From Nibricoccus sp. (GTDB taxonomy: Bacteria > Verrucomicrobiota > Verrucomicrobiia > Opitutales > Opitutaceae), in NCBI GenBank assembly GCA_047602425.1, contig JASGHG010000001.1:2368001-2432000 (forward strand): DNA of 64,000 bases, given 5' to 3'. Both the position numbers and the translations under genes were made by a program. Within the stretch, counting starts at the first letter, position 1. Each line of letters opens with the position of its first letter. This document shows positions 18,703 through 57,064 of this stretch, one piece after another. Below the pieces are notes generated by a model that worked only from the letters and a program-made list of their open reading frames with translations, was not told the origin of the DNA and ran no database searches.

Positions 18703-19614
18703 TCACTTTAGCTGTAGAACTCTGCGTAGTTCTGCGACCAGATGAGCGGCACCAGGACGAATCGCGACAAGGCGCGGATTCCAAACGAGCACGATGGGAC
18801 GTTTCAACTGCTCGAGGATCTTGGACTCGATCACGACGTAGTCCACGGGCGCGAGGTCGGTCAATGCTAGCTTTGGCAAGATGGCGGCAAAGTGGCCCGA
18901 GCGAACTGCACTCAGTGCGTGAGGGAACGATTGGCAAGCGATGGTGGGAGCGAAAGCCGCGCCGCATTCCTCAGTTAGTGCACGAAGTTTTTGTGCGAAT
19001 TGGCCGTCGGTTGTTTGGGCGACGAGCGGGACTTTGGCTAGAACCTCTTCCAGCGTGAGCTGTTGAACTCGTGATACGAGTTTGCGGGGAACGACAGCCA
19101 CAAATGGAACATCTCCCAATGGTGCCGACTTGAGGCCTTCGCCAACCGCGTCGCGGCGGATCAGGCCGAAGTCGATGCGGCCATCGTTCAGTTGCTGGAC
19201 GATTTCGTTCGTGCGGTGATTGTAGGTAGAGAATCGCATCGGCGTTTTTCCGTGTGAAACTTGGCCGAGCCGTGGGAGCACTAACCATTGAAGCAGGTTG
19301 TCGCCGGCTGCTATACTGTACTCGACGCAGCCCGCATGGCATTCCGAGCGGAAATCCTGTAGCGATCGTAGTTGGTTGCGGGCGAGTTCTGCCAGGCGTG
19401 CGCCTTGAACGGTGAGTTTGAGGATTTTTCCCTGCCGCTTAGTGACTTCGACGCCAAAGAATTCAGAGAGCTCGCGCAATTGACGGCTATATTGGCTCTG
19501 GCGAATGGGATCGCCAGGAGCTGCTTGGGCAATGCTGCCTGCGTCCTGAACTTCAACCAAGACCTTGAGTCGGTCGAGGGATAGACCGCGTTCTGCGAAG
19601 AGAGTGTCAAACAT
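18703..19614 (-). CDS. LysR family transcriptional regulator (copy 1)
   Basis: GSIAQAA..QSQYSRQLRELSEFFG HTH, LTVQG, IDFGL; divergent from the array. Confidence 0.88.
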   Translation of the reverse strand: MFDTLFAERGLSLDRLKVLVEVQDAGSIAQAAPGDPIRQSQYSRQLRELSEFFGVEVTKRQGKILKLTVQGARLAELARNQLRSLQDFRSECHAGCVEYSIAAGDNLLQWLVLPRLGQVSHGKTPMRFSTYNHRTNEIVQQLNDGRIDFGLIRRDAVGEGLKSAPLGDVPFVAVVPRKLVSRVQQLTLEEVLAKVPLVAQTTDGQFAQKLRALTEECGAAFAPTIACQSFPHALSAVRSGHFAAILPKLALTDLAPVDYVVIESKILEQLKRPIVLVWNPRLVAIRPGAAHLVAELRRVLQLK

Positions 19615-19797
19615 GACTACTAAGTCAGGTATCCTGAGTAATCATGTATGGCAAGACTTCTCACGATCGGGTAAAGTCTGCCCCGTCAACTGAGCCGGGA
19701 TTTAAAAATCACGAGAAATATTTTAAACACCTCTTGATTTTTGAAACCCCGGATCCGTTGTAACTCTTCGAACACTCATTCGTCTCAACCTTCTGCC

Positions 19798-19953
19798 ATG
19801 AATTCCACACGACAAATAAAATCAACGACCCTCCGGTTAGCGGAGAGGCATTGGTCGTGCGGCAAACAGACTGCCAAGATGACCATGCGTCGAGGTTTGG
19901 AAAGTTTCCGACCCGACTATGCGAATATTAACCAAGGAAGTGGTGTAACCTGA
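19798..19953 (+). CDS. Putative attenuator leader peptide (51 aa, all 20 amino acids)
   Basis: ORF conserved in both copies, ends 25 nt before a terminator hairpin; last codons contain GGAAGTGG, complementary to the terminator 5' arm. Confidence 0.65.
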   Translation: MNSTRQIKSTTLRLAERHWSCGKQTAKMTMRRGLESFRPDYANINQGSGVT

Positions 19954-19978
19954 GCAACGACTTTACGTAGACTCAAGG

Positions 19979-20007
19979 AACCCACTTCCCTCAGAAGTGG
20001 GTTTTTT
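19979..20007 (+). terminator. Intrinsic terminator / attenuator hairpin
   Basis: AACCCACTTC-CCTCA-GAAGTGGGTT followed by a T run; identical in copy 2. Confidence 0.8.
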
Positions 20008-20153
20008 CATGCCTGAAAAGCCGCTTCTGGGATCCGAGCAAGACTCGTTTTTCCAAGTTTCAAGCGGCTTCACTGCTGAGCCCAGGTCAATCAGCCAACG
20101 TCCGCACAAAATCCCGCGGCCGTCCAAACCACTCGCAAAGTGATAGGGCCGGA

Positions 20154-20173
20154 GGTGTGTGTTCTTTTTTGCG
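20154..20173. repeat. Left arm of 20-bp inverted repeat bracketing tRNA array 1
   Basis: GGTGTGTGTTCTTTTTTGCG is the exact reverse complement of 24610-24629. Confidence 0.9.
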
Positions 20174-20336
20174 AATGCAGGAGCCGAAACAAGCTCCTGC
20201 ACTAATATATCAAGATGCGGTGCGCTTAGATGGCGTTAAACGGCGATGCCGGCCGCATTTTCAATTTTCCCGCGCACGAGCTAAAGACCGACAGTGTTGT
20301 TATATTTGTTGTGAGGTCACAGCTCCGGCGCGAAAA

Positions 20337-20413
20337 CGCCTTGTCGTCTAACAGCATAGGATCCCGGAATTTCAAACCGAGGGATGGGGGTGCGAATCCC
20401 GTCGAGGCGACCA
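20337..20413 (+). tRNA. tRNA-Glu(UUC)
   Basis: CGCCTTG/CGAGGCG stem, loop ATTTCAA, CCA; weak anticodon stem. Confidence 0.7.
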
Positions 20414-20521
20414 TTTTGTTCGAACAAGCGCCGGTTCTTAGTCCGAGACCGGAGTGCGCAGTCCCCATCGGATTTCCCGCGAGCCAGTCGGCGGCCAATG
20501 CCGGCAGGGGAATATTTCCAT

Positions 20522-20595
20522 GCGTGTGTGGCGTAACAGCAACGTGCCGGTCTGCCAGTCCGGAGTTCCGAGTGCGATCCTCGGCATGCGCACCA
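20522..20595 (+). tRNA. tRNA-Gly(GCC)
   Basis: Cloverleaf, loop CTGCCAG, CCA. Confidence 0.8.
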
Positions 20596-20602
20596 TTTTC
20601 AT

Positions 20603-20693
20603 GCGCCGGTCCCCATAGCAGCGATTGGTCCAGACTTTTAATCTGGAGAGCCGCAACGCTCCAACGGGGGTGCAAGTCCCTCTCGGCGCACCA
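20603..20693 (+). tRNA. tRNA-Lys(UUU) anticodon with long variable arm
   Basis: CCAGA-CTTTTAA-TCTGG, variable arm GAGC-CGCAAC-GCTC, CCA. Confidence 0.75.
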
Positions 20694-20713
20694 ATTTAAT
20701 AGATACAATTTAC

Positions 20714-20791
20714 GCACGTCGAGGGAGCCAGTGAACCCGGCTGCCTGCAAAGCAGTGTTTCAGCACGGTGCGACACCGTGGACGTGCTCCA
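20714..20791 (+). tRNA. tRNA-Cys(GCA)
   Basis: Loop CTGCAAA, U73, CCA. Confidence 0.82.
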
Positions 20792-20799
20792 TTTCATTT

Positions 20800-20874
20800 G
20801 GGGATATGGCCGAGTTAGTAAGGCATCCGCCCTGCAAGCGGACCATGAGGGTGCGAATCCCTCTGTCTCCACCA
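20800..20874 (+). tRNA. tRNA-Ala(UGC)
   Basis: G3:U70 pair, loop CCTGCAA, CCA. Confidence 0.82.
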
Positions 20875-20912
20875 ATCTTTCCCCCGGTTTTGCGCGAGTG
20901 GGCCGGGTTCAA

Positions 20913-20987
20913 GCCTGAGAGGTGTTGATAGATACACGACCGTCTTCCAAGCGGATGTAGCCGGCGCGATACCGGCCTCGGGCACCA
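20913..20987 (+). tRNA. tRNA-Gly(UCC)
   Basis: Loop CTTCCAA, CCA. Confidence 0.78.
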
Positions 20988-20994
20988 TTTTTAT

Positions 20995-21072
20995 AGCAGG
21001 ATGGAGGAGCGGCCGTCCTCACCAGCCTCATAAGCTGCGAGATCGCTGGTTCAAATCCAGCTCCTGCTACCA
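20995..21072 (+). tRNA. tRNA-Met(CAU), initiator-like
   Basis: Loop CTCATAA, canonical GG D-loop and TTCAAAT T-loop, CCA. Confidence 0.82.
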
Positions 21073-21078
21073 TTTCAT

Positions 21079-21153
21079 ACGGACGTGGCAGACAAGCAAT
21101 GCAGCGGTCTCCAAAACCGCCTTATGGGGGAGCGATACCCTCCGTCCGTGCCA
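21079..21153 (+). tRNA. tRNA-Trp(CCA)
   Basis: GCGGT-CTCCAAA-ACCGC, G73, CCA. Confidence 0.82.
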
Positions 21154-21250
21154 ATTTGCAATATGAAGAGTAACACTTCGCCGAGGGCGAAGGACGAGTA
21201 AAAGTCTCGTTGAAGCAATGTGCGGCTCCGCGTTCAGCGGGGCTGTATCT

Positions 21251-21326
21251 GGAGGTTAGGCCGATCTAGTGATGGCACGTGGTTGAAGCCCACGAGAGCG
21301 CGGCGCAAAACCGCGAGCCTCCACCA
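21251..21326 (+). tRNA. tRNA-Phe(GAA)
   Basis: CGTGG-TTGAAGC-CCACG, CCA. Confidence 0.8.
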
Positions 21327-21334
21327 ATTTTCAT

Positions 21335-21410
21335 CGGGGTGTAGCGTAGCAGCCAACGCGCTCGGCTTGGGACCGAAAGATCGCAGGTGCAACTCCTGTC
21401 ATCCCGACCA
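21335..21410 (+). tRNA. tRNA-Pro(UGG)
   Basis: CGGGGTG start, loop CTTGGGA, CCA. Confidence 0.85.
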
Positions 21411-21416
21411 GTTTTC

Positions 21417-21635
21417 CAGGTGTGTGGCCCAGTCAGCGGGGCACCGGCCCGTGACGCCGGGGACGGAGCGAAGCGGAGATGGGGCCGCCGATAAGCGGAG
21501 GGCGTCATCCCCGAGCGTAGCGAGCCAAATGGGTGCAATTGACTCGTATTCGACAAGCGGATACTCGGGCCTTCGGCCCGCACCTGCGGTGCGCCGTTCC
21601 GCGTAGGAACCACGCTCCACCCACCCACCTGACCA
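21417..21635 (+). pseudogene. tRNA-His(GUG) interrupted by two palindromic insertions (21464-21527, 21540-21619)
   Basis: Removing the insertions essentially restores the uninterrupted copy at 58069-58144. Confidence 0.75.
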
Positions 21636-21639
21636 TTTC

Positions 21640-21716
21640 GCTCGTGGAGGCGAAGTAGTCGAGGCAACCCTCTGTCTGAGGGGAGTAAGCCGGTGCGAGT
21701 CCGGTCGCGAGCGCCA
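21640..21716 (+). tRNA. tRNA-Asp(GUC)
   Basis: Loop CTGTCTG, G73, CCA. Confidence 0.75.
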
Positions 21717-21723
21717 ATTCTAT

Positions 21724-21800
21724 CGAGGCGTAGCCAAGCAGCTAAGGCAGCTGGCCTACACCCAGCCATTCCGGGGGTGCAAGTCCCTCCGCCTCGACCA
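21724..21800 (+). tRNA. tRNA-Val(UAC)
   Basis: GCTGG-CCTACAC-CCAGC, CCA. Confidence 0.8.
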
Positions 21801-21806
21801 TTTGAT

Positions 21807-21881
21807 TCTGGAGTAGTTCAGCAGCAGAACGCCTGGCTGTTAACCAGGATGTCGCAGGGGCAGAACCTGCCTCCAGAGCCA
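21807..21881 (+). tRNA. tRNA-Asn(GUU)
   Basis: CCTGG-CTGTTAA-CCAGG, G73, CCA. Confidence 0.85.
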
Positions 21882-21885
21882 TTTT

Positions 21886-21961
21886 CGTCGGCGAGACGGC
21901 CAGTGAAGTCACCTGCCCGACATGCAGGCAACGCTCGGTGCGACACCGAGGCCGACGACCA
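21886..21961 (+). tRNA. tRNA-Val(GAC)
   Basis: CCTGC-CCGACAT-GCAGG, CCA. Confidence 0.75.
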
Positions 21962-22055
21962 TTTCCTTAGTTGTGTCGGAGGATTGGGCACAGCGAGGAG
22001 ATCAACTGGCCCGGCCACAGGCCGGAGACGAGTGCCTCCGCTCCGCCAGCACCAT

Positions 22056-22130
22056 CCGGACGTAGTGTAGCAGCAACATACTCGCCTCGGACGCGAGTGA
22101 CCGAGGGTGCAAATCCCTCCGTCCGGACCA
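22056..22130 (+). tRNA. tRNA-Pro(CGG)
   Basis: CTCGC-CTCGGAC-GCGAG, CCA. Confidence 0.82.
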
Positions 22131-22136
22131 ATTTTT

Positions 22137-22211
22137 TGCGGTGTCGTCTAACACGCAGGACAGCGGACTTTGAATCCGTTTGTGGAGGTGCGAATCCTCC
22201 CGCCGCAGCCA
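22137..22211 (+). tRNA. tRNA-Gln(UUG)
   Basis: GCGGA-CTTTGAA-TCCGT, U1-A72, CCA. Confidence 0.85.
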
Positions 22212-22215
22212 GCCT

Positions 22216-22355
22216 TGGTCACAAGCTTTAATAGTTAAGCCGCCGGCTCTTAACCGGCAGAACTCGGAGCATTTGACTCGCGCATACGCGCTCGGGGCCT
22301 TGCCCCTAACCTGCTGGTTAGCCGCTCCGCGTTGCTCCGCCGAGGCGGCCCACCA
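22216..22355 (+). tRNA. tRNA-Lys(CUU) with 66-nt T-loop insertion (22274-22339)
   Basis: GCCGG-CTCTTAA-CCGGC; T stem CTCGG/CCGAG flanks the insertion. Confidence 0.7.
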
Positions 22356-22356
22356 T

Positions 22357-22433
22357 GGCTCGATGGCGCAGCATGTAGCGCAGCTCCCTCATAACGAGAA
22401 GGTCGCGGGGTGCGAATCCCGCTCGAGCCCCCA
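22357..22433 (+). tRNA. tRNA-Met(CAU), elongator-like
   Basis: GGCTCGA/TCGAGCC stem, loop CTCATAA, CCA. Confidence 0.72.
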
Positions 22434-22440
22434 TTTTCAA

Positions 22441-22528
22441 CGGGACGTGGCAGAGCAGCAAATGCAACGCACTGTAAATGCGTCGGCTTTACAGCCTATC
22501 ACTGGTGCAAGTCCAGTCGGCCCGACCA
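22441..22528 (+). tRNA. tRNA-Tyr(GUA)
   Basis: ACGCA-CTGTAAA-TGCGT, long variable arm, CCA. Confidence 0.85.
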
Positions 22529-22643
22529 CTTTCTCGGTCTCATGGGTGCCAACAACTCATGCTTTTGTCGGTTAAGGTTAAAACCGGCCAGCAGTTCTGG
22601 TGGATCAGAGCAATCGTTAGGTTTTTGCGTAAAAAACCAGTTT

Positions 22644-22719
22644 GCCTCTTAAGCATAGTTAGCGATGCAACTTCTTGGTAAGGAGTAGATGGTCGGCGCA
22701 CATCCGACAGGAGGCTCCA
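22644..22719 (+). tRNA. tRNA-Thr(GGU)
   Basis: Loop TTGGTAA, GCC start, CCA. Confidence 0.8.
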
Positions 22720-22726
22720 ATTTCAT

Positions 22727-22884
22727 GCGAGCGTGGCGGAATAGCATACGCGCCGGCCCGAGATGCCGGTGAGCGCAAGCTCATGAGGGTGCGATTGACT
22801 CGTATTCGACGAGCGAATACTCGGGCCTGCGGCCCATGCCTGACGGCATGCCGTTCCGCTTCGCTTCACCCTTCGTTCGCACCA
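22727..22884 (+). tRNA. tRNA-Leu(GAG) with 73-nt T-loop insertion (22796-22868)
   Basis: CCGGC-CCGAGAT-GCCGG, variable arm, A73, CCA. Confidence 0.72.
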
Positions 22885-22890
22885 ATTTAT

Positions 22891-22980
22891 CGCGGCGTGG
22901 TTGGAATTAGTATACACAGCGGTCTCAAAATCCGCTGGGCTTCAACGCCCGTGCCGGTGCGAGTCCGGTCGCCGCGACCA
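22891..22980 (+). tRNA. tRNA-Leu(CAA)
   Basis: Loop CTCAAAA, variable arm, CCA. Confidence 0.82.
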
Positions 22981-22981
22981 T

Positions 22982-23069
22982 GCGGCTGTGTGTGGAAAAG
23001 TAGACCAGGCGGTTTTAAAAACCGCTGCGCCTCTGGCGCGTGGGCGTGCAAGTCGCCCCAGCCGCACCA
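22982..23069 (+). tRNA. tRNA-Leu(UAA)
   Basis: GCGGT-TTTAAAA-ACCGC, variable arm, CCA. Confidence 0.8.
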
Positions 23070-23078
23070 ATTTGATAT

Positions 23079-23165
23079 CGGCAAGTGATGGAACAAGCAT
23101 ACACGCGAGTCTCAGAAACTCGAGGGCGCGAGCCTGTGCAGGTGCAAATCCTGTCTTGCCGACCA
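23079..23165 (+). tRNA. tRNA-Leu(CAG)
   Basis: CGAGT-CTCAGAA-ACTCG, variable arm, CCA. Confidence 0.82.
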
Positions 23166-23174
23166 TTTTACTAT

Positions 23175-23251
23175 CGCCCTGTCCTCTAACGAGCACAGGA
23201 GACCCGTTTCTCAAATGGGCAATGTGGGTGCAAGTCCCATCGGGGCGACCA
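23175..23251 (+). tRNA. tRNA-Glu(CUC)
   Basis: CCCGT-TTCTCAA-ATGGG, CCA. Confidence 0.8.
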
Positions 23252-23255
23252 TTGA

Positions 23256-23347
23256 CGCCGCGTAGTTCAAAGTGAACCGTCCGCCTTATAAACGGAATCG
23301 CGCTAGATGAGCGCCAGGCCCGGGAGCGTTACCCGGCGCGGCGACCA
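23256..23347 (+). tRNA. tRNA-Ile(UAU) with long variable arm
   Basis: TCCG-C-CTTATAA-A-CGGA, variable arm GCGCT-AGATG-AGCGC, A73, CCA. Confidence 0.72.
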
Positions 23348-23351
23348 ATTT

Positions 23352-23418
23352 GGGGCAGTGAGAACAGGGGTACTTCGTTCGAAACACGTCAAACAACACC
23401 TTGTTCATGTTTCTCCTC
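23352..23418 (+). ncRNA. Short Y-RNA-like motif unit
   Basis: GGCAGTGAG..TACTTCG..TTCTCC, shared with the units upstream of TROVE in copy 2. Confidence 0.55.
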
Positions 23419-23425
23419 AATATAT

Positions 23426-23500
23426 GCCTCTTATGCGTAGTTAGCGACGCGCGGCGCTTGTACCGCTGAAAGGCCGGCGCAAATCCGGCAGGAGGCTCCA
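23426..23500 (+). tRNA. tRNA-Thr(UGU)
   Basis: Loop CTTGTAC, CCA. Confidence 0.8.
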
Positions 23501-23504
23501 ATTT

Positions 23505-23579
23505 CTCCCTGTAGTGAAATAGCTATCACACGGCTCTGCGAAGGCCGAGATCCAGGTGCAAGTCCCGGCAGGGGGACCA
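23505..23579 (+). tRNA. tRNA-Arg(GCG)
   Basis: CGGCT-CTGCGAA-GGCCG, CCA. Confidence 0.78.
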
Positions 23580-23587
23580 TTTTTCAG

Positions 23588-23662
23588 CTCTGCGTGGTGA
23601 AATTATTATCATGTCGTGCTTCGAACGCGTCGTTGTGGCTGGGATTCCCGCCGCAGAGTCCA
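23588..23662 (+). tRNA. tRNA-Arg(UCG)
   Basis: Loop CTTCGAA, CCA; T stem imperfect in this copy. Confidence 0.68.
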
Positions 23663-23704
23663 ATCTCGTTGTATCTATGCCGTGGTTTATTGCGGCGATA
23701 TTTT

Positions 23705-23777
23705 CTCCGCGTGGCCGAGAAGCTCAGGCCTCCGCCTTCTAAGCGGATCGACGCAGGTGCAAATCCTGTCGCGGAGA
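23705..23777 (+). tRNA. tRNA-Arg(UCU)
   Basis: TCCGC-CTTCTAA-GCGGA; no encoded CCA. Confidence 0.8.
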
Positions 23778-23783
23778 CTTTAC

Positions 23784-23874
23784 GGAGGCGAAATCGGACA
23801 AGCGTGCCGACAACCGTTTGAAGCGGTCAGGGCGACTGCGTGTCGCTGGGGAGCATGACCTCTCGCCTCCGCCA
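23784..23874 (+). tRNA. tRNA-Ser(UGA)
   Basis: GGAG start, loop TTTGAAG, variable arm, G73, CCA. Confidence 0.75.
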
Positions 23875-23880
23875 ATCTTT

Positions 23881-23966
23881 GGAGAGTAAAGCCGTGAAGC
23901 GCGGCGACCGGTTGGAAGCCGGCTCGGACCTCCGGGTCTGTGGGGCGGAACCACTGCTCTCCGCCA
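23881..23966 (+). tRNA. tRNA-Ser(GGA)
   Basis: Loop TTGGAAG, variable arm, G73, CCA. Confidence 0.72.
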
Positions 23967-23974
23967 AATTTGAT

Positions 23975-24200
23975 GGAGAGTGAATCCGCCGAGGTGCGGA
24001 CACTGTTTCGACGAAGCGAAGCGGAGATGGATCGACCGAAGGTCGACCCGCAGGGTGAGCGTAGCGAATCAAAGCAGATGGATTGCCGGCACAAAGACTC
24101 CGCTTTGTTCGTCGTGTTGCCCGCGTTGCGGGCGCCCACGCGACTACCCCTCGCTTCGCTCAGGGCTGCGCCATCTTCGTGCTGCGCACTCCGTCCGCCA
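23975..24200 (+). pseudogene. tRNA-Ser(CGA) disrupted by insertions at 24012-24071 and 24106-24193
   Basis: Comparison with the intact copy at 62743-62832. Confidence 0.75.
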
Positions 24201-24204
24201 TCTT

Positions 24205-24278
24205 CCTCGTGTAGCTCAAAAGCAGAGCAATCGGCTGATAACCGATCGACGTCGGAGCGTTACCGAATGCGAGGACCA
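24205..24278 (+). tRNA. tRNA-Ile(GAU)
   Basis: ATCGG-CTGATAA-CCGAT, CCA. Confidence 0.82.
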
Positions 24279-24285
24279 TTTTTTC

Positions 24286-24373
24286 GGAGGGTTAATCCCG
24301 AGAGTCGGAAGCCGCGGTGCTAACGCGTGCGGCGGTGAAAGCCGCTGAGGGGCAGGACCTCAACCCTCCGCCA
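24286..24373 (+). tRNA. tRNA-Ser(GCU)
   Basis: Loop GTGCTAA, variable arm, G73, CCA. Confidence 0.72.
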
Positions 24374-24379
24374 TTTTTC

Positions 24380-24488
24380 ATCGCGTGTGCGATTGACTCG
24401 TTTTCGCTAAAGCGAAACTCGGGGCCTTGCCCCGCACCTGCTGGTGCGCCGCTCCGCGCTCGATGAGCGTTGCGCATGCCCGGCAGCA
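24380..24488 (+). pseudogene. tRNA-Gln(CUG) remnant: 5' half missing, T-loop insertion 24394-24474
   Basis: 3' part matches the intact gene at 63007-63080. Confidence 0.7.
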
Positions 24489-24496
24489 TTTTTCAC

Positions 24497-24571
24497 TCTC
24501 TGCAAGCATAGGCAGCGATGCAGCGGTTTCGTAAACCGCAGAGGCCGGCGCACACCCGGCGCGGAGATCCA
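24497..24571 (+). tRNA. tRNA-Thr(CGU)
   Basis: GCGGT-TTCGTAA-ACCGC, CCA. Confidence 0.8.
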
Positions 24572-24609
24572 GTTTTTCAGTCAGACGGTTTTTGGACTGA
24601 GGAGTTAAA

Positions 24610-24629
24610 CGCAAAAAAGAACACACACC
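24610..24629. repeat. Right arm of inverted repeat bracketing tRNA array 1
   Basis: CGCAAAAAAGAACACACACC. Confidence 0.9.
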
Positions 24630-24691
24630 CACGTTGGCTGAGCTGAGCCCAGCGGAGCTGTGCCATTTTTTAATTTATCCATTTCGTTCCC

Positions 24692-25327
24692 ATGAACACT
24701 AGCATTCTCGATAAACCCATCGTCCTGTCGCTTAACCGCGCCTGGCAGGTGATCGGCCACCGTACCGTGAAGCAGGCTCTCGTAGCTCTTAACGGTGGTT
24801 CGGCTGGTCTACCGCCTGCGCTCGGTCTCGACATTGCCTATCCGAAGCTCGACGACGGTGGTTGGAATTTCGACCGCCCGCTTTTCCTCAATCCACTTCC
24901 GTGGGTTGATTGGATCAATCTGCCGGTTCGTGAATTCGACTTCGTCGTTGCGACGCCGCGGATGCAAATCCGCGTGCCAACCGTTATCATCTCGACGCAA
25001 TATGATCGCATGCCGATTCGGCTTCCGCGGGTCACGCGCCAGGCGATTTTTGAGCGCGATGGTGGTATCTGCCAATACACCGGCGAGTACGTCGGCAAAG
25101 GCGGCGGTAATCTCGATCACGTTGTGCCCCGCGACCGCGGTGGCCGCGACAGCTTCGAGAACCTCGTCTGGGCAAAAAAGGAGATCAACTCGATGAAGGC
25201 TAACCGTCTTCCCCACGAGGCCGGTCTCCGACTGCTCCGCCGTCCGAAAACGCCCGCGCCGTTGCCCGCCGCCGCGGCCATCCGCGAGCCCAAACATCCT
25301 GACTGGCGCCACTTCCTCGCACACTGA
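24692..25327 (+). CDS. HNH endonuclease (copy 1)
   Basis: IFERDGGICQYTG..NLDHVVPRDRGG..NLVWA..N..KAN. Confidence 0.9.
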   Translation: MNTSILDKPIVLSLNRAWQVIGHRTVKQALVALNGGSAGLPPALGLDIAYPKLDDGGWNFDRPLFLNPLPWVDWINLPVREFDFVVATPRMQIRVPTVIISTQYDRMPIRLPRVTRQAIFERDGGICQYTGEYVGKGGGNLDHVVPRDRGGRDSFENLVWAKKEINSMKANRLPHEAGLRLLRRPKTPAPLPAAAAIREPKHPDWRHFLAH

Positions 25328-25396: not shown

Positions 25397-26104
25397 ATGA
25401 ACACCGAATCAACATCTTCCATCGGGATCTCCGATGTCCTCGACATCGTAGATACTGCCCTGGCGACGATCTCCCGTCGTTTGCCGGTCCATGTTGGTCG
25501 TGAAGACTTGGCCACTGTTGGCAAGCTCGCGCTCATATCTGCGCTGGGCCAGTGCAGTGGTTCGGTCAGCGAGGTTCGCGCTTACTGCTTCGTGCGTGTG
25601 CGCGGTGCAATTCTGGACGAACTGCGCCGCCTCGATCCGCTTTCGCGCCGCCGCCGTGAACAAGTGACGGCGGTTGTTCGCGCCCAGGCAGAACTGAGCG
25701 CGCGCTTCAGCCGTGCAGCCACGCGGGCTGAAATCGCGGTGGCGACAAAACTGTCCATTGCCGAGGTCGCGGCCGTGCAGCACATGCTCGCTCAGGAATC
25801 GGAGTTTTCAGAAACGGAATTGGACATGTTGCCGGACACGGTAGCGCCAACGCCGGCTGAAACTTCTGAAACCGAGGACCTGCGTTTAAATCTGCGTGGC
25901 GCACTTCAACGGCTGTCAGGCAACCAGGCAGCGGTTCTGTACCGCTATTACTTCGATGAAGTGACGCTCGATGTAATCGCGGCCGAGATGGGCCTCTCGA
26001 AAGAGCGTGTCCGTCAGATCCGCGACGCCGGTGAGAAAAAACTCCGTGCTGACTTCATCGTCCTGTCGATCTGGCAGTCACTCTTTAATCACAGCCGGGA
26101 TTAG
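25397..26104 (+). CDS. Sigma-70 family sigma factor (FliA/WhiG-like)
   Basis: RVRGAILDELRRLD, region 4 TLDVIAAEMGLSKERVRQI. Confidence 0.85.
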   Translation: MNTESTSSIGISDVLDIVDTALATISRRLPVHVGREDLATVGKLALISALGQCSGSVSEVRAYCFVRVRGAILDELRRLDPLSRRRREQVTAVVRAQAELSARFSRAATRAEIAVATKLSIAEVAAVQHMLAQESEFSETELDMLPDTVAPTPAETSETEDLRLNLRGALQRLSGNQAAVLYRYYFDEVTLDVIAAEMGLSKERVRQIRDAGEKKLRADFIVLSIWQSLFNHSRD

Positions 26105-27599: not shown

Positions 27600-29146
27600 A
27601 TGAATATGGAAATCAAAGCCCGTGATCTCGTTGCTGCCGGTTGGCATGAAGGCCGCCGCCTGGGCGCTGCTCTCCGCCGCGCACGTGATCTCGAATCCAC
27701 TGGAATTTCTCGCGCCGAAGTGCTCGTTCAACTCGAACAAGAATTTCCAAAGCAACTCGCCGTGATTCTTCCGCGCTATGAGCCGGCTCCGCTGGCCGAA
27801 GCGATCGAAGCTACCACACCGGAAGAAGCGACCAACGTTACCTCGGCCCGTCAGCGCATGCTCGAACTTCTCCACGTCCCGGTGGTGAAGCGCGGAAGCA
27901 TCATGCCGGACGCCTGCCCGTCGGGTGGTGGTCGTGCCACGATTCCGGTTGGGGGAGCCATCGAAGTCGAGAATGCCATCATTCCCGGCGCTCACTCGGC
28001 TGATATCTGCTGCTCGATGTACGCATCCTTTTTCCCGGCCAACCATCCGGTGGGCGAAATGATGGATCATCTTCAGAAGACCACGCACTTCGGTGCGGGT
28101 GGTCGTGCACGCGGTCAGCAATGGACCACGTCGGTGGTGGAAGAGCCGGTTTGGGATAACCCTTTCCTTTCCGGACTGCGTAGCCGGGCCAGGATTTCAT
28201 GGGAACCCAAGGCGACGGAAATCATTTCGCCTATGTCGGACGTATCCAGTTTACGGATGCGCAACGCGCTGCGCTTGAATCCGCCGGCTATACCGAACTC
28301 ACCGAATGGATCGTGCGCCGCGACGGTGAATTCAACGTCCTCGTGACTCACCACGGTTCGCGTGGTCTCGGTGCTGATGTGTACAAACGCGGCCAGAAAG
28401 CTGCCCGCAAATGGTGTGACGAAAACGCCAAAGATATTCCCGACGCAGCTGTCTGGTTGCCGTACGATTCTCCGGATGGCTCCGCTTACTGGGACGCGTT
28501 GCAGTACGTATCTCGCTGGACGCGTGAAAACCACGCCCAGATCCATGCCGCCTTCCTGCGTCGCTTGGGTCAGCGTGGCCTCGTGCAAATCGGCAACGAG
28601 CACAACTTTGTTTGGAAACGCGGAGATTCTTTCTTCCACGGAAAGGGTGCTACGCCGGCGTGGAAAGACGCGCAGGGCCGTCCGCTGCTCGGAATTATTC
28701 CGCTTAACATGGCCCGTGAAATCCTCCTCGTACTTGGTTCGGACAACAACAACTACCTGTCGTTCTGTCCGCACGGCGCTGGTCGCAACCTGTCGCGCTC
28801 GGCCATGCTGCGTCCTTACAAAGACGTGGACGGTGAAATCGATCCGGCACTCGTGCAGAAGACCCTGGCCGAAACCACGGCCGGGCTTGATATCCGTTGG
28901 TTCAATGGCGCACCGGATTTGTCCGAGTCTCCGCTCGGCTACAAAAACGCTACGCAGGTGAAGGCGCAGATCGACCGCTTTGGTTTGGCCACGGTGGTTG
29001 GCGAAATCCAACCGCGCGGTTGCATAATGGCCGGCGAAGCTCCGGAACCGCCATGGGCTCGTGCTCGCCGCGAAAAACGCGCTGCCCACAAAGCCATGCG
29101 CCGCGAAGGTGAAGCTGAGGCGGCTGAAAGTGCGCGAACTTTGTGA
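27600..29146 (+). pseudogene. rtcB: RtcB family RNA ligase, frameshifted near 28190
   Basis: MPDACP, IPVGG, SADICCS in the first frame; GTQGDGNHF, VTHHGSRG, NEHNFV, HGKGAT, PHGAGR in the second frame. Confidence 0.88.
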
Positions 29147-31746: not shown

Positions 31747-34494
31747 TCAAACTGGTATGTGCCAGCGGGTGATCGCACCAGAGCTATCGAACACGGCCAA
31801 TTCGTGTGGTATGTTCGTTCCGCTCAGGCCGATTGTTACGGCGTTGCTAGATGGTAGAGAGAACCATCCAGCCTCATGCATGCGGCCTTCGTGACACTGG
31901 AAAACTTTTCCATCTCCTCCTGAAAGTACAACAAGTCGTCCATCTTGAAGGTAGGTCCCGCGTGGCATTGGCATGGTATCATCCAAGCTCGCTATGGAAT
32001 AGGCTTCAGCTGAGACAAAGGATACTCCTCTATCAAGCAGCACAATCCATCCGGCCATCGAGGGTGGGCTCGGTAGAACCCCAATGATGCGTTTCTCGAG
32101 TTTGATTACGGTGAGCGGAGCCTGATCCGACATGATCAGTAAACTTTTCCCGTAAGCCAGTACGATGCGCGTTGGTGTTCCGCCGGATTCTAGATAGAGC
32201 TGGTTGCTTTCAACCTCGGCCGCTGCGGCAACAATCTCATCTGTAATATCACGCGAATGGACTAGCTTCTCGCTGTGATAGCTCGCAAGGACGACTCGGT
32301 TGCTAACTACTCGGACGATCCAAAAAATGCCGCGCGCTTCCGTGATTCGAACTGTGTCGGCTGGCAGCCAAGAAGGCGTGCCAACTTTGCAGGCGGAGCG
32401 ATTGAAAACGTCTGTTCCGGGAAGATCCGTCAGGGCGAGGGGATTGCTAAAAGGCCGTGCTAGAAAAATGACATCTTTGCTCATTTTCAGCAGAAATGCC
32501 GCTTTCATTTCAGGGGCTGAGTCTGCCCAATCGGCACTTTGTTGTTCACCTTCCCACGTCCCGCGAGTGAAAAATATTCGGGGACCGTTTCGGGTTGCAA
32601 CAGCGGTAAAACCGGTCGTGCCACCTTCTATCTGTGCCCAGATTCCAATGTGTGGAAGTGAAAGGGCTTTTCCTTTATCTGGCACCAACTTCCTCGTGAA
32701 TTGTGTAGGCGGAGGAAGATGTTTGGAGAAGATTTTTTTCCCTCCATCTCGGAACCGATTCACGTCCCGAGCTAAAAGCCGGTCTTTTGGTGTTAGGCGT
32801 ACAAGTGCACGTAGAACTGCAATCTCCTCGTGTGACTCCAATAGTTTATCGGTGAGCGCTGAGGAAATTTTTGCGCGAGTTACTTCGGCTGCAATTTTGC
32901 GCACCTCTTGGTGGGCGGCGTTTTCGGCAGTGCGAGAAACCAGTCCTACTAAATCGGCGATCTGACGCGCAGCAGTGGTCTCGTCGCCCAGTTCGGCTAT
33001 GAGTTTGGTGAGGTCGGGTGTGCGATTGTGTCGCGAAAGAATTGCGAAGCGTTCTTCCAAGCATTGTAGGGCCTGTTTACCACTCGGCCATGTCGATTGC
33101 AAAAGGTTGAGCGCTTCGTCGACTGCCTTCAATCGCGTCTCAAGAAACCGCACGGCGGTGAGCGTATCTCCTTTTGCTAAGTGCAGATCTATCCATTTGC
33201 GCAGGAACTTGGACTCGTTTTCGGAATCGCCGATATCGCGGTAAATATTTGCAATCTCCAACCAGCACGAATGTTTGGTGTAGATCTCGATGGCCTCGTG
33301 TGCAAATCCACCTCCAGCTAAGCATTCGGCCGCCAAGAGCGGTCTATGAAGTCTTTCTTGATACAGCAGAGCGGCCTCCCGGAAAAACTTCCCTTGCTTC
33401 AGGACATCCGCCGCTGAGTTGAGGTCACCGAGGAGTTCTGCATAGATGTAAGCAGCCCGACGGTATTGTCCCAATTTGGCTTCGCGCACCGCGTTTTCGC
33501 GGTAACGCTTTGAAAGATTACTTTGTACGTCTCCAGGAATTGCCCAAAAATCACTGGGACGGTTACCACCGAGACGCCCCAAGTTAAAATCCAGAATGCG
33601 TCGACTTAGCTGACTGGAGGGCGGCGCTTTACCGCGATGCGCAAGGGCGGCTAGAGAGATGGCGTGTTTGAGACCTTCCTCCGGATTATTTTCAAGCATC
33701 TCCAGCAGTCGGAAAAGCTCTTTGTGCCGTTGACGTGAGAGTTCATCTGTAAGGCCAGCGAGTTTAGTCTGAGCCCAGTTCTCAAGATGGTTGATCCAAT
33801 TTGCGGAAACGTGCGGATTTCGTGGTACCAGCGAAGTGAGGCCGATCAAAGTCCGTACAAAAACACTCCCGATCCCCTCTGCGATTTTGCCAGGAAGCTT
33901 TCTCGTTTCATCTGAAGTCGGTGGGAGGTTTGTGGCGGGTTCACTCCCGATTTCGCGGCTCTCCTCTCCAAAGATTTCTGTCAGTTGAAGGGGTGCCTCG
34001 AGTCTTACGGAGCGTAATCTCTGGTTTAAAAGAATTGGTGTGCGCGCCGCGCTCCAATTGATCGTAGATGCAGGACGTCGTGGAGGAGCAAGGAAATCCC
34101 ATGCGTATTTAATATCATGCTTCTCGTAACCGGTTATGCCAAACGACGGGTGATAAATTAGGGCTTCATATCGGTGCAGGGCACTCCATTCAGTTGCGTC
34201 AATCGGAGGCATTATTGTTGTCCCAATTGGAACGAATACGTCCGGCGCAATTTGGTAGTAAGGTAGACCTCGGAATCCCGGAGGTATCGCGGTGTTTGCG
34301 GGCGGTATGGCGAGTACCCCTTTCGTTTGGTTCGATCCGATTGCTGAGATGACACAGAATTTCACTTGCTCGGTCGGAATCGACCAACCTGCGATCTCGG
34401 TGAGCCACACATTTGGATCCTCGCCCGGTATGAACCACGCGCTAGCCTTGTGGGCCGCTTGAAGAGTGGGTTTAAGTCGTAGGGTCGTTAGCAT
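31747..34494 (-). CDS. MoxR-vWA-beta-propeller system component (bpX3-like N-terminus, TPR repeats)
   Basis: AWFIPGEDP..WL; YRRAAYIYAELLGD..AA..L TPR block; operon with MoxR. Confidence 0.7.
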   Translation of the reverse strand: MLTTLRLKPTLQAAHKASAWFIPGEDPNVWLTEIAGWSIPTEQVKFCVISAIGSNQTKGVLAIPPANTAIPPGFRGLPYYQIAPDVFVPIGTTIMPPIDATEWSALHRYEALIYHPSFGITGYEKHDIKYAWDFLAPPRRPASTINWSAARTPILLNQRLRSVRLEAPLQLTEIFGEESREIGSEPATNLPPTSDETRKLPGKIAEGIGSVFVRTLIGLTSLVPRNPHVSANWINHLENWAQTKLAGLTDELSRQRHKELFRLLEMLENNPEEGLKHAISLAALAHRGKAPPSSQLSRRILDFNLGRLGGNRPSDFWAIPGDVQSNLSKRYRENAVREAKLGQYRRAAYIYAELLGDLNSAADVLKQGKFFREAALLYQERLHRPLLAAECLAGGGFAHEAIEIYTKHSCWLEIANIYRDIGDSENESKFLRKWIDLHLAKGDTLTAVRFLETRLKAVDEALNLLQSTWPSGKQALQCLEERFAILSRHNRTPDLTKLIAELGDETTAARQIADLVGLVSRTAENAAHQEVRKIAAEVTRAKISSALTDKLLESHEEIAVLRALVRLTPKDRLLARDVNRFRDGGKKIFSKHLPPPTQFTRKLVPDKGKALSLPHIGIWAQIEGGTTGFTAVATRNGPRIFFTRGTWEGEQQSADWADSAPEMKAAFLLKMSKDVIFLARPFSNPLALTDLPGTDVFNRSACKVGTPSWLPADTVRITEARGIFWIVRVVSNRVVLASYHSEKLVHSRDITDEIVAAAAEVESNQLYLESGGTPTRIVLAYGKSLLIMSDQAPLTVIKLEKRIIGVLPSPPSMAGWIVLLDRGVSFVSAEAYSIASLDDTMPMPRGTYLQDGRLVVLSGGDGKVFQCHEGRMHEAGWFSLPSSNAVTIGLSGTNIPHELAVFDSSGAITRWHIPV

Positions 34495-36920
34495 AGCCGG
34501 TCACAAAAAGATTTTAGAACCGTTGCCGCGTGTTCACTGCTCACGGGCATATCCTTGCCGACGAAAAACTCGGGACCACAAATGTGCCCATCGCTGCACC
34601 AGGCTGCCATATCCGCTTGGTTCAATGTAAGAGTGAGTTCAGGTACCGAAGAGTCGCTGCTGCGTAAGTGAAGGAGCCCGCGGCTATCTAGCCATGCGCG
34701 GCTACCGTTGGGCCAAGTAGCAAGCTGAAGCGAACAGCCCATTTGAGTCACTGTTTGCGCGGTGGAAAATCTCAACATTGAGCTGTCCAGCGATAGCGCT
34801 TTTTCACTGGCCTGAGTCAATCGGAGCGCTTGAGCAGTAGTATGGATTTCTAGCCAGGCGCCTTTATATTTACGGAGGCGTAAAGGCTGTCCGGGAGCTC
34901 CTTGAATAGCATTGAAACGCGACTGAAGCGATCGCATCGGTGGCGATACTCTGCCAATCGCTTGAGCGGCACTGTGCCCTGCTAGTGGGGTGATCCGCTT
35001 GGTTTGGAGGTATACAGCGTGGTGATTTGCTTTGGTTGAGGAATCGATGGTGATCAACACCTCTCCTTTTAAGATGGTTCGTGCCTCACGAATTGAGAAG
35101 CCGACCTCAAAGAATACGTGCCCAGCTGGTGAAAGAATTTTCCCGTTACGGAGAAGCATCCAAGGTCCAGCGCCATCTCGCTCGAATACCAGGGCGATTT
35201 CTTGGCGGGTTGTATTGCGGCCCAGAAGAGTTTCATCCCAGTGAACGGCGTTGCCGCTCCAGTTGGCGAAGGTGATACCCTGGCCGGGAGAAAAATATCG
35301 TCCGCTAATCCACGACATGCCTGGAGGAAACGACGTTTCACTGAGGACTTCTGCGGAGTTGAGCGATACGACGACCACTCGAGTGTGTAGTATGACCAGC
35401 AATACATCCCCTTCAGGAAAGACGGCCAAAGGATACTGAGGACCGGTGAATCGGGCGACAGTAGATTGGACCGAGTCTTTTGGTAAGACTACAACTGCCA
35501 TGTGCCCGCCACCTGAACGGCCCTTCACAACGACAATGCGGCCAGTCGTGTCTTCATGCATCCACACCGTACGTCCCAGTGGTAAATCACTGAGGAGTTG
35601 CGTTGCTCCGACGGTGCCGCGTTCCCACCTCAACAAACGTCGGTCGCCTGTAACGCATATCCCGCCAGAAGTGGTGGGCTCGATCAGTTCAATTTTACCG
35701 TTGACCGGTAGGTAAAGCGGAAAGCGATTGACGCGCAAAATAGCGGGGAGATCTGTGCTAACGGCGGGGTTGACCAAAGCCAAAGCGGGTGGCTTGTTTG
35801 CGGGGGCAGTAAACAGCTTGTCGATGGCGATTTGAACTTGAGCAAGCGGGCGAGGTGAGCCCCAGGGCATCGTATGGAGCTGAACGAAACCTTCGCTATC
35901 GACTAGGACGAGAAATCCTCGTTCAAATTGAGCGCGTGCGATACAGGCGTGGAACATTGGATCACCGAGTCCTGAATCGATCAGGATGGTCAGGGAACGT
36001 TCTGGCTTTAGTGCCGGTGGTTCGTGGTGTACGTAAAGCGCTTCATTGAGTGCGACACGTGCTGCCAGCGTCAGATTGTCATGGGCCAGTTCGCTCAAGA
36101 GTAACCGATCAAGCGAACCGCGATTTCCTAAACCAGACGCACCACCTAACGCCAGTTCATCGACTGCTGCAATGGTGCTAGGAAGTCGTATAGCCGCCAT
36201 CAAATCGCGTGCGGCGAGCACCAAACCCGCGTATTCACCTTCTTGCTGTAGATGGGAGAGCACTCTACGCATGCGCTCGCAGGGCGGGAGCTCAATTGTT
36301 TCCTTCGCAGGTTGAGGTAATGTGTCCAGGCCCGTGCGGATACGTCGGCTTAAAGACTCAGCGGTGTGGAGACGCAGTCCTTCGACAACGGTCCACAAAC
36401 TATTCAGTAGATCGAGCGGTGCAGAGTCTTCAGCCGGCGTATTGAGGTCGCGGTCGTTCCATTCTTCGGAAAGGCCTAGCGCAATCTCCGCTGCTTGTTC
36501 TTTGGATCGTGAAGTAGAGGTCTCAAAAACCGTTTCTGCGAGGAACGCTTTGCCTCGGCTTGTTTGCGTGAGCGATGTTGGCAGGGTTGAGACTTTGGCA
36601 AGCTCAGTGAGGGCCTGCCCAAAATTCCTTGTTTTTAGTACACGGAGTAATCCTGCGTGACTTGCCTCTGTCGATGGGCGAGGTGGATTTTCTGGAGCCG
36701 AAGGCAGTTTGCCTCGGCATGCAGCCAACAACAGGACAATAGAGGCAAACGATGGAAGACCGCCTGTCGCCAGTTGTTCGATGACTAAGTCGACCTCATC
36801 GCGAAAAGCGATTGTAGTCCCGTCCTTCCAAGTGAGTACGCGTCCGTTTTCTTCCCATCGCCACAGTGCGCCTGGAACTGATTGCAAATATTGGAAAGCT
36901 GATTGGCGAGAGGTGCTCAC
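34488..36920 (-). CDS. MoxR system core protein (bpX0/vWA-like plus beta-propeller/bpX1-like)
   Basis: LWRWEE, GLPSF, NRGSLDRLLLSELA..ALNEALY, C-terminal AWLDSRGLLHLRSSD. Confidence 0.7.
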   Translation of the reverse strand: MSTSRQSAFQYLQSVPGALWRWEENGRVLTWKDGTTIAFRDEVDLVIEQLATGGLPSFASIVLLLAACRGKLPSAPENPPRPSTEASHAGLLRVLKTRNFGQALTELAKVSTLPTSLTQTSRGKAFLAETVFETSTSRSKEQAAEIALGLSEEWNDRDLNTPAEDSAPLDLLNSLWTVVEGLRLHTAESLSRRIRTGLDTLPQPAKETIELPPCERMRRVLSHLQQEGEYAGLVLAARDLMAAIRLPSTIAAVDELALGGASGLGNRGSLDRLLLSELAHDNLTLAARVALNEALYVHHEPPALKPERSLTILIDSGLGDPMFHACIARAQFERGFLVLVDSEGFVQLHTMPWGSPRPLAQVQIAIDKLFTAPANKPPALALVNPAVSTDLPAILRVNRFPLYLPVNGKIELIEPTTSGGICVTGDRRLLRWERGTVGATQLLSDLPLGRTVWMHEDTTGRIVVVKGRSGGGHMAVVVLPKDSVQSTVARFTGPQYPLAVFPEGDVLLVILHTRVVVVSLNSAEVLSETSFPPGMSWISGRYFSPGQGITFANWSGNAVHWDETLLGRNTTRQEIALVFERDGAGPWMLLRNGKILSPAGHVFFEVGFSIREARTILKGEVLITIDSSTKANHHAVYLQTKRITPLAGHSAAQAIGRVSPPMRSLQSRFNAIQGAPGQPLRLRKYKGAWLEIHTTAQALRLTQASEKALSLDSSMLRFSTAQTVTQMGCSLQLATWPNGSRAWLDSRGLLHLRSSDSSVPELTLTLNQADMAAWCSDGHICGPEFFVGKDMPVSSEHAATVLKSFCDRLC

Positions 36921-55265: not shown

Positions 55266-56177
55266 TCACTTTAGCTGTAGAACTCTGCGTAGTTCTGCGA
55301 CCAGATGAGCAGCTCCGGGGCGAATCGCGACGAGGCGAGGGTTCCAAACGAGCACGATGGGACGGCGCAGTTGATCGAGAATTTTGGACTCAATCACCAC
55401 GTAGTCGACGGGGGCGAGATCCGTCAGCGCCAGTCGAGGTAGAATCGCACCGAATGAACCGGAGCGGACAGCGCTCAACGCATGTGGGAATGACTGGCAC
55501 GCTATAGTGGGAGCGAAAGCTGCGCCGCATGCTTCGGTTAAGCCGCGGAGTTTTTGCGCGAATTGACCGTCGGTTGTTTGCGCAACCAGCGGCACTTTTG
55601 CCAACACTTCTTCCAGCGTCAGCTGTTGAACCTTCGACACGAGTTTGCGCGGTACCACCGCCACGAAAGGAACGTCGCCCAAAGATGCGAACTTGAGCCC
55701 CTCGCCGACCGCGTCGCGCCGAATCAAACCGAAGTCAATGCGGCCATCGTTCAGCTGCTGGACGATTTCGTTGGTGCGGTGATTGTAGGTAGAGAATCGC
55801 ATCGGTGTTTTTCCATGCGAGACTTGCCCCAGTCGTGGAAGGACGAGCCATTGAAGCAGGTTATCGCCCGCCGCGATGCTGTATTCGACAGAGGCGGAAT
55901 GGCACTCTGACCGGAAGTCTTGCAGGGAACGGAGTTGGTGCCGGGCGAGTTCTGCAAGGCGTGTACCTTGAGCCGTGAGTTTGAGAATTTTCCCCTGCCG
56001 CTTGGTTACCTCTACGCCGAAGAATTCCGAAAGCTCGCGGAGTTGGCGGCTGTATTGGCTCTGGCGAATGGGATCGCCGGGAGCTGCTTGGGCAATGCTG
56101 CCAGCATCCTGGACTTCAACCAGAACCTTGAGGCGATCGAGAGAGAGGCCGCGTTCGGCAAAGAGTTGGTCAAACAT
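55266..56177 (-). CDS. LysR family transcriptional regulator (copy 2)
   Basis: Near-identical protein to 18703-19614, many synonymous differences. Confidence 0.88.
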   Translation of the reverse strand: MFDQLFAERGLSLDRLKVLVEVQDAGSIAQAAPGDPIRQSQYSRQLRELSEFFGVEVTKRQGKILKLTAQGTRLAELARHQLRSLQDFRSECHSASVEYSIAAGDNLLQWLVLPRLGQVSHGKTPMRFSTYNHRTNEIVQQLNDGRIDFGLIRRDAVGEGLKFASLGDVPFVAVVPRKLVSKVQQLTLEEVLAKVPLVAQTTDGQFAQKLRGLTEACGAAFAPTIACQSFPHALSAVRSGSFGAILPRLALTDLAPVDYVVIESKILDQLRRPIVLVWNPRLVAIRPGAAHLVAELRRVLQLK

Positions 56178-56359: not shown

Positions 56360-56515
56360 ATGAAATCCACACGACTTATAACAACCTCAGCCCTCCGGCT
56401 AGCGGAGAGGCATTGGTCGTGTGGCCAGCAGATCGCCAAGACGACCATGCGTAGAGGTTTGGAAAGTTTCCGACCCGATTACGCGAATATTAACCAAGGA
56501 AGTGGAGTAACCTGA
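56360..56515 (+). CDS. Putative attenuator leader peptide (copy 2)
   Basis: 51 aa, all 20 residues, same C-terminal 23 aa as copy 1. Confidence 0.65.
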   Translation: MKSTRLITTSALRLAERHWSCGQQIAKTTMRRGLESFRPDYANINQGSGVT

Positions 56516-56540
56516 GCAACGACTTTACGTAGACTCACGG

Positions 56541-56569
56541 AACCCACTTCCCTCAGAAGTGGGTTTTTT
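56541..56569 (+). terminator. Attenuator terminator (copy 2)
   Basis: Same hairpin and T run as 19979-20007. Confidence 0.8.
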
Positions 56570-56986: not shown

Positions 56987-57064
56987 CGCCTTGTCGTCTA
57001 ACAAGCACAGGATCCCGGAATTTCAAACCGAGGGATGCGGGTGCGAATCCCGTCGAGGCGACCA
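56987..57064 (+). tRNA. tRNA-Glu(UUC)
   Basis: Homolog of 20337. Confidence 0.7.

Follow-up and report, generated by a model that had tools for sequence, protein, structure and literature searches.

We describe two tRNA arrays in a 64,000-nucleotide stretch of DNA from Nibricoccus sp. (Verrucomicrobiota; Opitutaceae; contig JASGHG010000001.1, positions 2,368,001 to 2,432,000; hereafter the window), together with the complementary sequences that flank them. The leader and the trailer of such an array very probably pair with each other in the transcript as an RNA helix. As judged by comparison of homologous loci, this predicted helix is under selection and closes the non-coding block between leader and trailer, and homologous stems are found in 14 families of the class Verrucomicrobiae, with spans of 0.1-12 kb. 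The arrangement is a real, class-wide new variant of the leader-trailer design of rRNA operons; it appears to work like the rRNA helix but is not a member of that group, because no 16S or 23S rRNA is enclosed. A model-generated first-pass annotation of the window had already proposed leader-trailer pairing that closes the whole array like an rRNA stem, and covariation, an excess of G·U pairs, a partner-swap test and the enclosure of tRNAs now support this proposal. That annotation did not include the boxA-like core, the pseudoknot domain and the attenuator, which are also described here.

In copy 1 of the array, the inner 5' arm (20154-20173, forward strand, as are all the features below unless stated otherwise) is the perfect 20-bp reverse complement of the inner 3' arm in the trailer (24610-24629), and an outer 5' arm (20091-20101) is the reverse complement of 24631-24641 over 11 bp. 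In copy 2, the inner pair is 56716-56735 with 63197-63216 and the outer pair is 56653-56663 with 63218-63228; thus the arm pairs first reported for both copies are exact. The inner 20-mer is the longest exact inverted repeat of the window, the runner-up being 15 bp long, and in 200 shuffles of 19601-24700 by two-base blocks the longest exact inverted repeat was 10-14 bp. Matches of 11 bp are ordinary on their own, since the window contains 486 of them. Leader and trailer were co-folded by calculating a minimum free energy structure of the entire 4.6 kb from 20050 to 24680, in which both arms are paired and the outer helix is extended to 20064/24661. The outer 3' arm with its extension occupies 24631-24665, pairs back to 20064, and has a GCCA end before a U-tract. 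The corresponding segments of copy 2 are 56626-56735, containing the 5' domain with the outer arm and the inner 5' arm, and 63197-63252, containing both 3' arms. Note that the sequence around the arms is about 92-94% identical between the two copies, so that copy 2 is weak independent evidence for the arms, and the independent evidence has to come from homologues.

Of 300 genomes of the family to which the window belongs, 62 gave a match in a leader search. Among these loci, 54 could be tested, including both window copies, after three at contig ends and five without a cassette were left out. In 50 of the 54, the 5' arm has a partner that scores above a downstream control and lies near the first downstream open reading frame (ORF); in three others (L059, L073 and L081) the partner is at the expected place but is not better than the control. 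The family loops span approximately 100 to 8,400 nt. Relatives of the linked HNH gene led to arrays in another family, kin to Prosthecobacter and Brevifollis, and a leader search of the class genomes matched 40 of 301, some of them weakly. Of 116 other loci, 56 were dropped for want of a domain hit. In the scan of other families, 44 of 63 loci had a stem at least as good as the shuffled maximum, which adds 13 further families and spans of up to 12 kb. The stem passed in 41 of the 43 distinct other-family loci that extend to the HNH gene; at L156 the arm is visible but falls under the null maximum. Most of the 80 metagenome loci are too short, and the stem is present in six of the seven that extend to the HNH gene. 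In 100 loci chosen for having a stem, the duplex length by a lenient count is 18-36 bp (median 27), and the tRNAs called by ARAGORN comprise 876 inside the stem, one outside nearby, and none reversed inside. Four stem loci without the anchor motif were left out of the counts of tRNA position, covariation, outer closure, and start accessibility. In minimal loci both arms are rewritten and the pairing is retained. Homologous arrays thus do have complementary flanks, the lack of which the first-pass annotation had named as grounds for abandoning its proposal. Beyond the class, BLAST searches with one leader gave nothing real in plasmids or phages and just short, weak matches in 401 genomes of the phylum, by which absence is not shown, and the bacterial leader pattern matched none of the viral contigs.

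The same annotation had placed the two arms on an equal footing, and this holds for the inner arm only. The outer 11-bp arm, which overlaps the 3' strand of a pseudoknot hairpin in the leader, is better than shuffles in 22 of 53 family loci, and only the window clade and one Prosthecobacter clade show clear pairing back to the 5' end of the leader. From this comparison, the inner arm is the only apparently general arm, and the outer arm is lineage-restricted. An acceptor stem like that of a tRNA or tmRNA, ending in CCA, is predicted in the window; it was considered for the outer closure and dropped, since this closure only weakly beats shuffles family-wide (mean -9.8 against -9.3 kcal/mol over 53 family loci) and is clear in one Prosthecobacter clade only.

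The way in which the two strands vary indicates pairing at the RNA level. In the 12-bp core of 93 loci, 1,041 pairs are Watson-Crick, 35 are G·U, 9 are A·C, and 31 are of other types; among the 37 distinct core arm pairs, G·U exceeds A·C by 27 to 9. The bias is weaker in a wider window of 19 columns (77 against 45 overall, and 42 against 27 with p 0.09 in the well-registered rows). The triplet preceding the core covaries with its partner, occurring as TGT/ACA in 34 loci, TTC/GAA in 36, and TTT/AAA in nine. The 7-nt core has changed 10 times in its 5' strand, compared with 50 times in its 3' strand, a difference that is partly circular because anchoring on the core inflates it. In a partner-swap test of 52 loci (L059 and L076 were left out), the mean energy was -40.2 kcal/mol with the locus's own partner and -29.1 with the partners of other loci; the own partner was the best in 16 of the 52, chiefly those with divergent arms. 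Because the strands co-vary, G·U exceeds A·C, tRNAs are enclosed and none is inverted, we take the arms to be an RNA helix rather than the ends of a DNA cassette.

The 5' strand of the inner helix contains a core (20160-20167) with the same sequence as the first eight nucleotides of this genome's pre-23S boxA. The NusB-NusE complex contacts nucleotides 1-8 of boxA only (PMC3177189), the gamma-proteobacterial boxA consensus is GYTCTTTAANA (PMC5725501), and a variant boxA is bound by Bacillus NusB (PMC13753749). Among the rRNA leaders of the class that were readable, 27 in all, 23 carry a boxA-like motif; judged by eye, it touches or lies within the 16S leader-trailer strand in about 14 of them. 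The pattern used did not find the motif in the rRNA leader or spacer of four loci of one genus (L365, L367, L369 and L371). The array core is kept in all 44 family loci with loops longer than 700 nt and is missing from eight of the nine with loops shorter than 400 nt, having been lost at least two separate times on the sigma-factor tree. The genome encodes NusB, RNase III, Rho, and RNase E/G, and RNase J has no match above the cut-off in it.

Upstream of the core lies a putative attenuator. A leader peptide ORF of 51 codons (19798-19953) ends in codons, at 19936-19943, that would form an antiterminator strand, and an intrinsic terminator hairpin with a U-tract (19981-20007) is followed by a second competing strand from 20020 (whole element 19981-20030). 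This element is apparent from the sequence and its folds; a simple terminator scan did not list the hairpin at 19981-20007. Copy 2 has the same ORF (56360-56515) and terminator/antiterminator (whole element 56360-56592). An ORF with the same Gly-Ser-Gly-like final codons occurs in most of the 62 family loci, the layout of ORF, antiterminator, and U-tract terminator is conserved in the family, and a similar one is found in Prosthecobacter-type loci and in six phage contigs. It also persists in five loci without the cassette, where it leads straight into the sigma gene. This leader-peptide attenuator is probably the translation-stress sensor of the operon.

Between the attenuator and the inner arm lies a conserved 5' RNA domain of about 90 nt (20064-20153), which is predicted to consist of an H-type pseudoknot, in which 20066-20068 pair with loop positions 20080-20082 of the hairpin 20075-20095, and two further hairpins (20102-20119 and about 20121-20149). 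The hairpins covary, and the 3-bp stem of the pseudoknot occurs as GGC:GCC, GGT:ACC, and AGC:GCT. Examples of the domain, besides that of the window, are found at L097, L204, L397, L406, L446, and L448. Searching the window and eight homologous loci against Rfam gave no family for leader or trailer at the gathering score and nothing meaningful at E<=5; in particular, the covariance models of GOLLD, ROOL, EAR, and ribozyme families did not match leader or trailer. Hammerhead, hairpin, twister, pistol, and HDV-like ribozymes were rejected by eye, because their conserved cores or topologies do not fit. The 5' domain is present in nine of 80 viral loci found by HNH alignment. In three of these nine, the arms are nearly identical to bacterial ones and the stems are clear; in six AT-rich contigs of large phages, the domain and the attenuator head tRNA arrays. 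Finally, the domain and the core stand directly ahead of serine-recombinase/ParB-like operons (genes named by eye) at five loci (L120, L121, L127, L247 and L303). The domain is a candidate structured RNA, previously undescribed, that Verrucomicrobiae have in common with large AT-rich phages. The three parts, domain, core, and helix, can be separated, since the core can be lost with the stem kept and the domain and core occur without a trailer; in these comparisons, the boxA-like core tracks long transcripts and the putative helix tracks RNA cargo.

As to function, we lean towards a release mechanism in the style of rRNA operons, in which a Nus-tethered leader-trailer helix closes a stress-induced block of tRNAs and Y RNAs so that it can be released, probably by RNase III. 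The attenuator would pass transcription if ribosomes stalled in the early part of the 51-codon ORF, an assumption that we make by analogy with the antibiotic-induced array of Anabaena (PMC8421152). The pseudoknot domain would then be exposed and the boxA-like strand would load NusB-NusE, which would shield the long untranslated block from Rho and keep the 5' strand near the polymerase. Both the Nus loading and the delivery of the 5' strand to the trailer are suggested by what has been proposed for rRNA (PMC10250234). The comparison of loci shows that the trailer, emerging after the last tRNA, pairs with the 5' strand into a helix of about 20-30 bp that loops out the block whatever its size. 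Cutting of this helix, most likely by RNase III, would free the block as a unit for trimming by RNase P/E, part it from the HNH-sigma-RtcB mRNA, and bury the boxA. In RNA sequencing runs, relatives are present as a small share in four of the ten runs listed; these are contigs only, some of them tens of kilobases long and possibly derived from DNA, and they show no transcript ends at the arms.

Several observations weigh against this mechanism or against the generality of the helix. tRNAs fold and mature without a closing helix, and the stem survives in loci that lost the core. The 8-nt core matches the boxA of the host rRNA, but the GA that usually follows it in the rRNA boxA of the class is found in none of 80 array cores, so that the conservation of the core may be due to a different binding partner. 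No arm partner was found at L076 in the downstream-control test of the 54 family loci, at L140, a complete array, in the scan of other families, or at L253 in the metagenome set. In the six AT-rich phage loci, the best arm partners are not above shuffled arms, and the five recombinase loci have no tRNAs, attenuator, or trailer. The arms are also absent from the two cyanobacterial arrays and the one mycobacterial array checked among the known tRNA L-arrays, so flanking arms are not a property of all L-arrays. In addition, related loci are not statistically independent of each other.

Two of the other explanations, an uncut clamp and an off-switch, and rRNA-like release are not mutually exclusive. 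It is possible, though we consider it rather doubtful, that the helix is not cut and acts as a clamp: after RNase P/E excised the tRNAs, it would hold the leader fragment on the HNH-sigma-RtcB mRNA at its 5' end, protecting this mRNA from 5'-dependent decay and keeping the pseudoknot domain joined to it in a two-piece RNA. This would agree with the position of the 3' arm 13-100 nt ahead of the next start codon (62 loci measured), with the retention of the stem in loops of 100-400 nt that have neither tRNA nor boxA core, with the pairing through to the 5' end of the leader in some lineages (the window clade and one Prosthecobacter clade), and with the RNase E/G encoded in the genome. However, the genome also encodes RNase III, a near-perfect helix of at least 20 bp is a typical substrate of that enzyme, and many lineages lack the outer closure. 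An off-switch seems unlikely; here the trailer would be a built-in antisense over boxA, in some lineages also unfolding the pseudoknot domain, that ends antitermination and returns the HNH nuclease and sigma genes to normal polarity control once the RNA block is made. Trailer pairing does fall exactly on the core, and pairing of the window's outer arm would open up the hairpin of the pseudoknot; nevertheless, the pairing is retained where the core is lost, and hairpin invasion is confined to 22 of 53 family loci. A broader and speculative possibility, which we would not expect to hold as a whole, is that the leader, with its pseudoknot domain and boxA-like strand, is a new class of cis-acting RNA that serves long operons of foreign or non-coding content as a processive antiterminator, and that the trailer captures the leader kilobases later as a two-piece RNA, ending antitermination and, once the tRNAs have been excised, capping the HNH-sigma-ligase mRNA. 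This reading would cover the tRNA arrays of bacteria and large phages as well as the recombinase operons.

The remaining suggestions of the first-pass annotation fared less well. That the arms are inverted DNA-level ends of a mobile or invertible cassette is very improbable, although the pair in the window is perfect, the operon is duplicated in this genome, and L-arrays are transferred horizontally (PMC8421152). Besides the excess of G·U over A·C and the unequal conservation of the strands, none of the 100 stem loci has a reversed tRNA inside or an inversion, and the conserved unit (LysR, attenuator, HNH and sigma) reaches past the arms. The features of an insertion sequence, a transposon, or an invertible segment are lacking, namely a symmetric repeat, a clean target duplication, a transposase (none among the 23 window proteins scanned), and an inversion; a direct repeat of 11 nt close to the two ends is offset at one of them and varies among homologues. 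Equally improbable is circularisation, in which the helix would juxtapose the ends for ligation by RtcB into a circular precursor. The ends are indeed juxtaposed and RtcB is linked to many arrays, but RtcB is frameshifted in copy 1 and was not found in many stem-bearing loci, and ends left by RNase III are not RtcB substrates. Furthermore, the bulge-helix-bulge that marks archaeal-type circular pre-rRNA was matched in the stem of one of 100 loci by a loose screen, and the 15 of 35 joints listed, all from contigs, include no trailer-to-leader joint. The least plausible is coupling to translation, whereby pairing would unmask the start codon of the HNH gene once the array is complete; the arm does lie near that codon, but over 62 loci the predicted unpaired fraction near the start is 0.58 when free and 0.57 when arm-bound, with shifts of more than 0.15 upward in four loci and downward in four.

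Both the leader-trailer helix and boxA belong to the textbook picture of the rRNA operon. A helix of at least 17 bp between the flanks, here as in rRNA, closes kilobases of RNA, and its near-invariant 5' strand is matched by wobble-type covariation on the partner, as in the bacterial leader-trailer helix with boxA/boxC and the rrn antitermination complex (PMC10250234). As in the rRNA leaders of the class itself, a boxA-like motif lies at the 5' strand, and the host has NusB, RNase III, and Rho. In contrast to the rRNA helix, the array helix surrounds tRNAs, Y RNAs, and in some cases protein genes, its loop size varies about 100-fold, and its core lacks the following GA and is preceded by the attenuator and the pseudoknot domain. 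The putative attenuator resembles the known class of trp/his-type leader-peptide attenuators in that the final codons of the ORF would provide the antiterminator strand that competes with a U-tract terminator, but it has about 50 mixed codons without a run of a single residue and would control tRNA and RNA-repair genes. Like HK022 put and Bacillus EAR, the 5' domain is a conserved multi-hairpin or pseudoknot RNA that heads a long operon, and it precedes trailer-less recombinase operons as well; unlike them, it has no sequence or Rfam match, and its activity as an antiterminator is putative. As in the Rsr/Ro60-Y RNA-RtcB repair operons, Ro60, YrlA-like RNAs, and RtcB are found in copy 2 and in many homologues, but here they are carried as cargo inside the looped-out block or next to it.

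As in the trn operon of Anabaena and other L-arrays (PMC8421152), a long block of supernumerary tRNAs is linked to HNH and RtcB genes. Verrucomicrobia are among the phyla listed there as having L-arrays; those L-arrays are regulated through direct repeats over the promoter and have HNH upstream, whereas here HNH is downstream. A search by term of the main text of that article gave no RNase III, boxA, or flanking complementarity; its supplements may show verrucomicrobial arrays. We found no report of tRNA arrays with a leader-trailer helix, a boxA, or an attenuator in the open full-text literature, supplements and most subscription journals aside. Why the rRNA leader-trailer helix is essential is still argued (PMC10250234), and a helix that is kept around self-folding cargo of 0.1-12 kb separates tethered folding, release, protection, and the ending of antitermination as possible jobs, which become testable in cultured Prosthecobacter or Brevifollis, carriers of homologues or of the linked HNH gene. 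The arrangement would also offer a mechanism for the switching on, full transcription, and processing of spare tRNA arrays outside cyanobacteria, and the leader defines a putative structured RNA common to bacteria and large phages.

The enclosed block of copy 1 (20174-24609) contains 16 tRNAs called by ARAGORN, further tRNA-like units, and unannotated hairpin RNAs. That of copy 2 (56736-63196) contains 22 ARAGORN tRNAs, YrlA-like Y RNAs at 60021-60130 and 60626-60728 (below the gathering score, with E-values of 2e-6 and 9e-4), and a Ro60/TROVE gene (60825-62264). Rfam adds more tRNA-like units to the 16 and 22, and the genome has 46 further tRNAs outside the two arrays. A LysR-family regulator gene (18703-19614, reverse strand, Pfam HTH_1 and LysR_substrate; 55266-56177, reverse strand, Pfam, in copy 2) is divergent from copy 1, and in the majority of family loci that have arrays it likewise precedes the leader. 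The first gene after the trailer encodes an HNH endonuclease (24692-25327, Pfam HNH_4; 63278-63913 in copy 2) and is followed by genes for a FliA/WhiG-like sigma-70 factor (25397-26104, a match below the family cut-off) and for the RNA ligase RtcB (27600-29146), which a frameshift near residue 198 splits. The RtcB gene of copy 2, which lies outside the window, is intact. Since its RtcB is frameshifted and Ro60 and the Y RNAs are missing, copy 1 looks to be decaying.

Some minor observations concern the contents of the blocks. In copy 2, four or five Y-RNA-like units stand in tandem at 60007-60760 ahead of Ro60, two of which match YrlA below the gathering score. Several tRNA-like units of copy 1 are interrupted by small palindromic inserts, located in T-loops or anticodon arms at 21459-21530, 21531-21620, 22270-22340, 22787-22870, 24010-24075, and 24385-24460; because the copies differ and the contigs of relatives skip several of them, they look like miniature mobile elements or introns that target tRNAs. 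A GOLLD RNA (143 bits, gathering score 150) lies at 5431-5835 of L204, within the looped-out block of Prosthecobacter fluviatilis. A hairpin RNA of about 66 nt that has no Rfam match and does not occur in this genome is found within the loop of L065 (oriented 1294-1360), L068, L073, L077, L081, and about 35 other family loci, and persists in minimal loci without tRNAs. At L051, L052, and L061, the stem encloses one small ORF, TIR-like by eye, and no tRNAs. Between the two array copies of the window, 31747-36920 carries MoxR-vWA-beta-propeller ternary-system genes (bpX0, bpX1 and bpX3).

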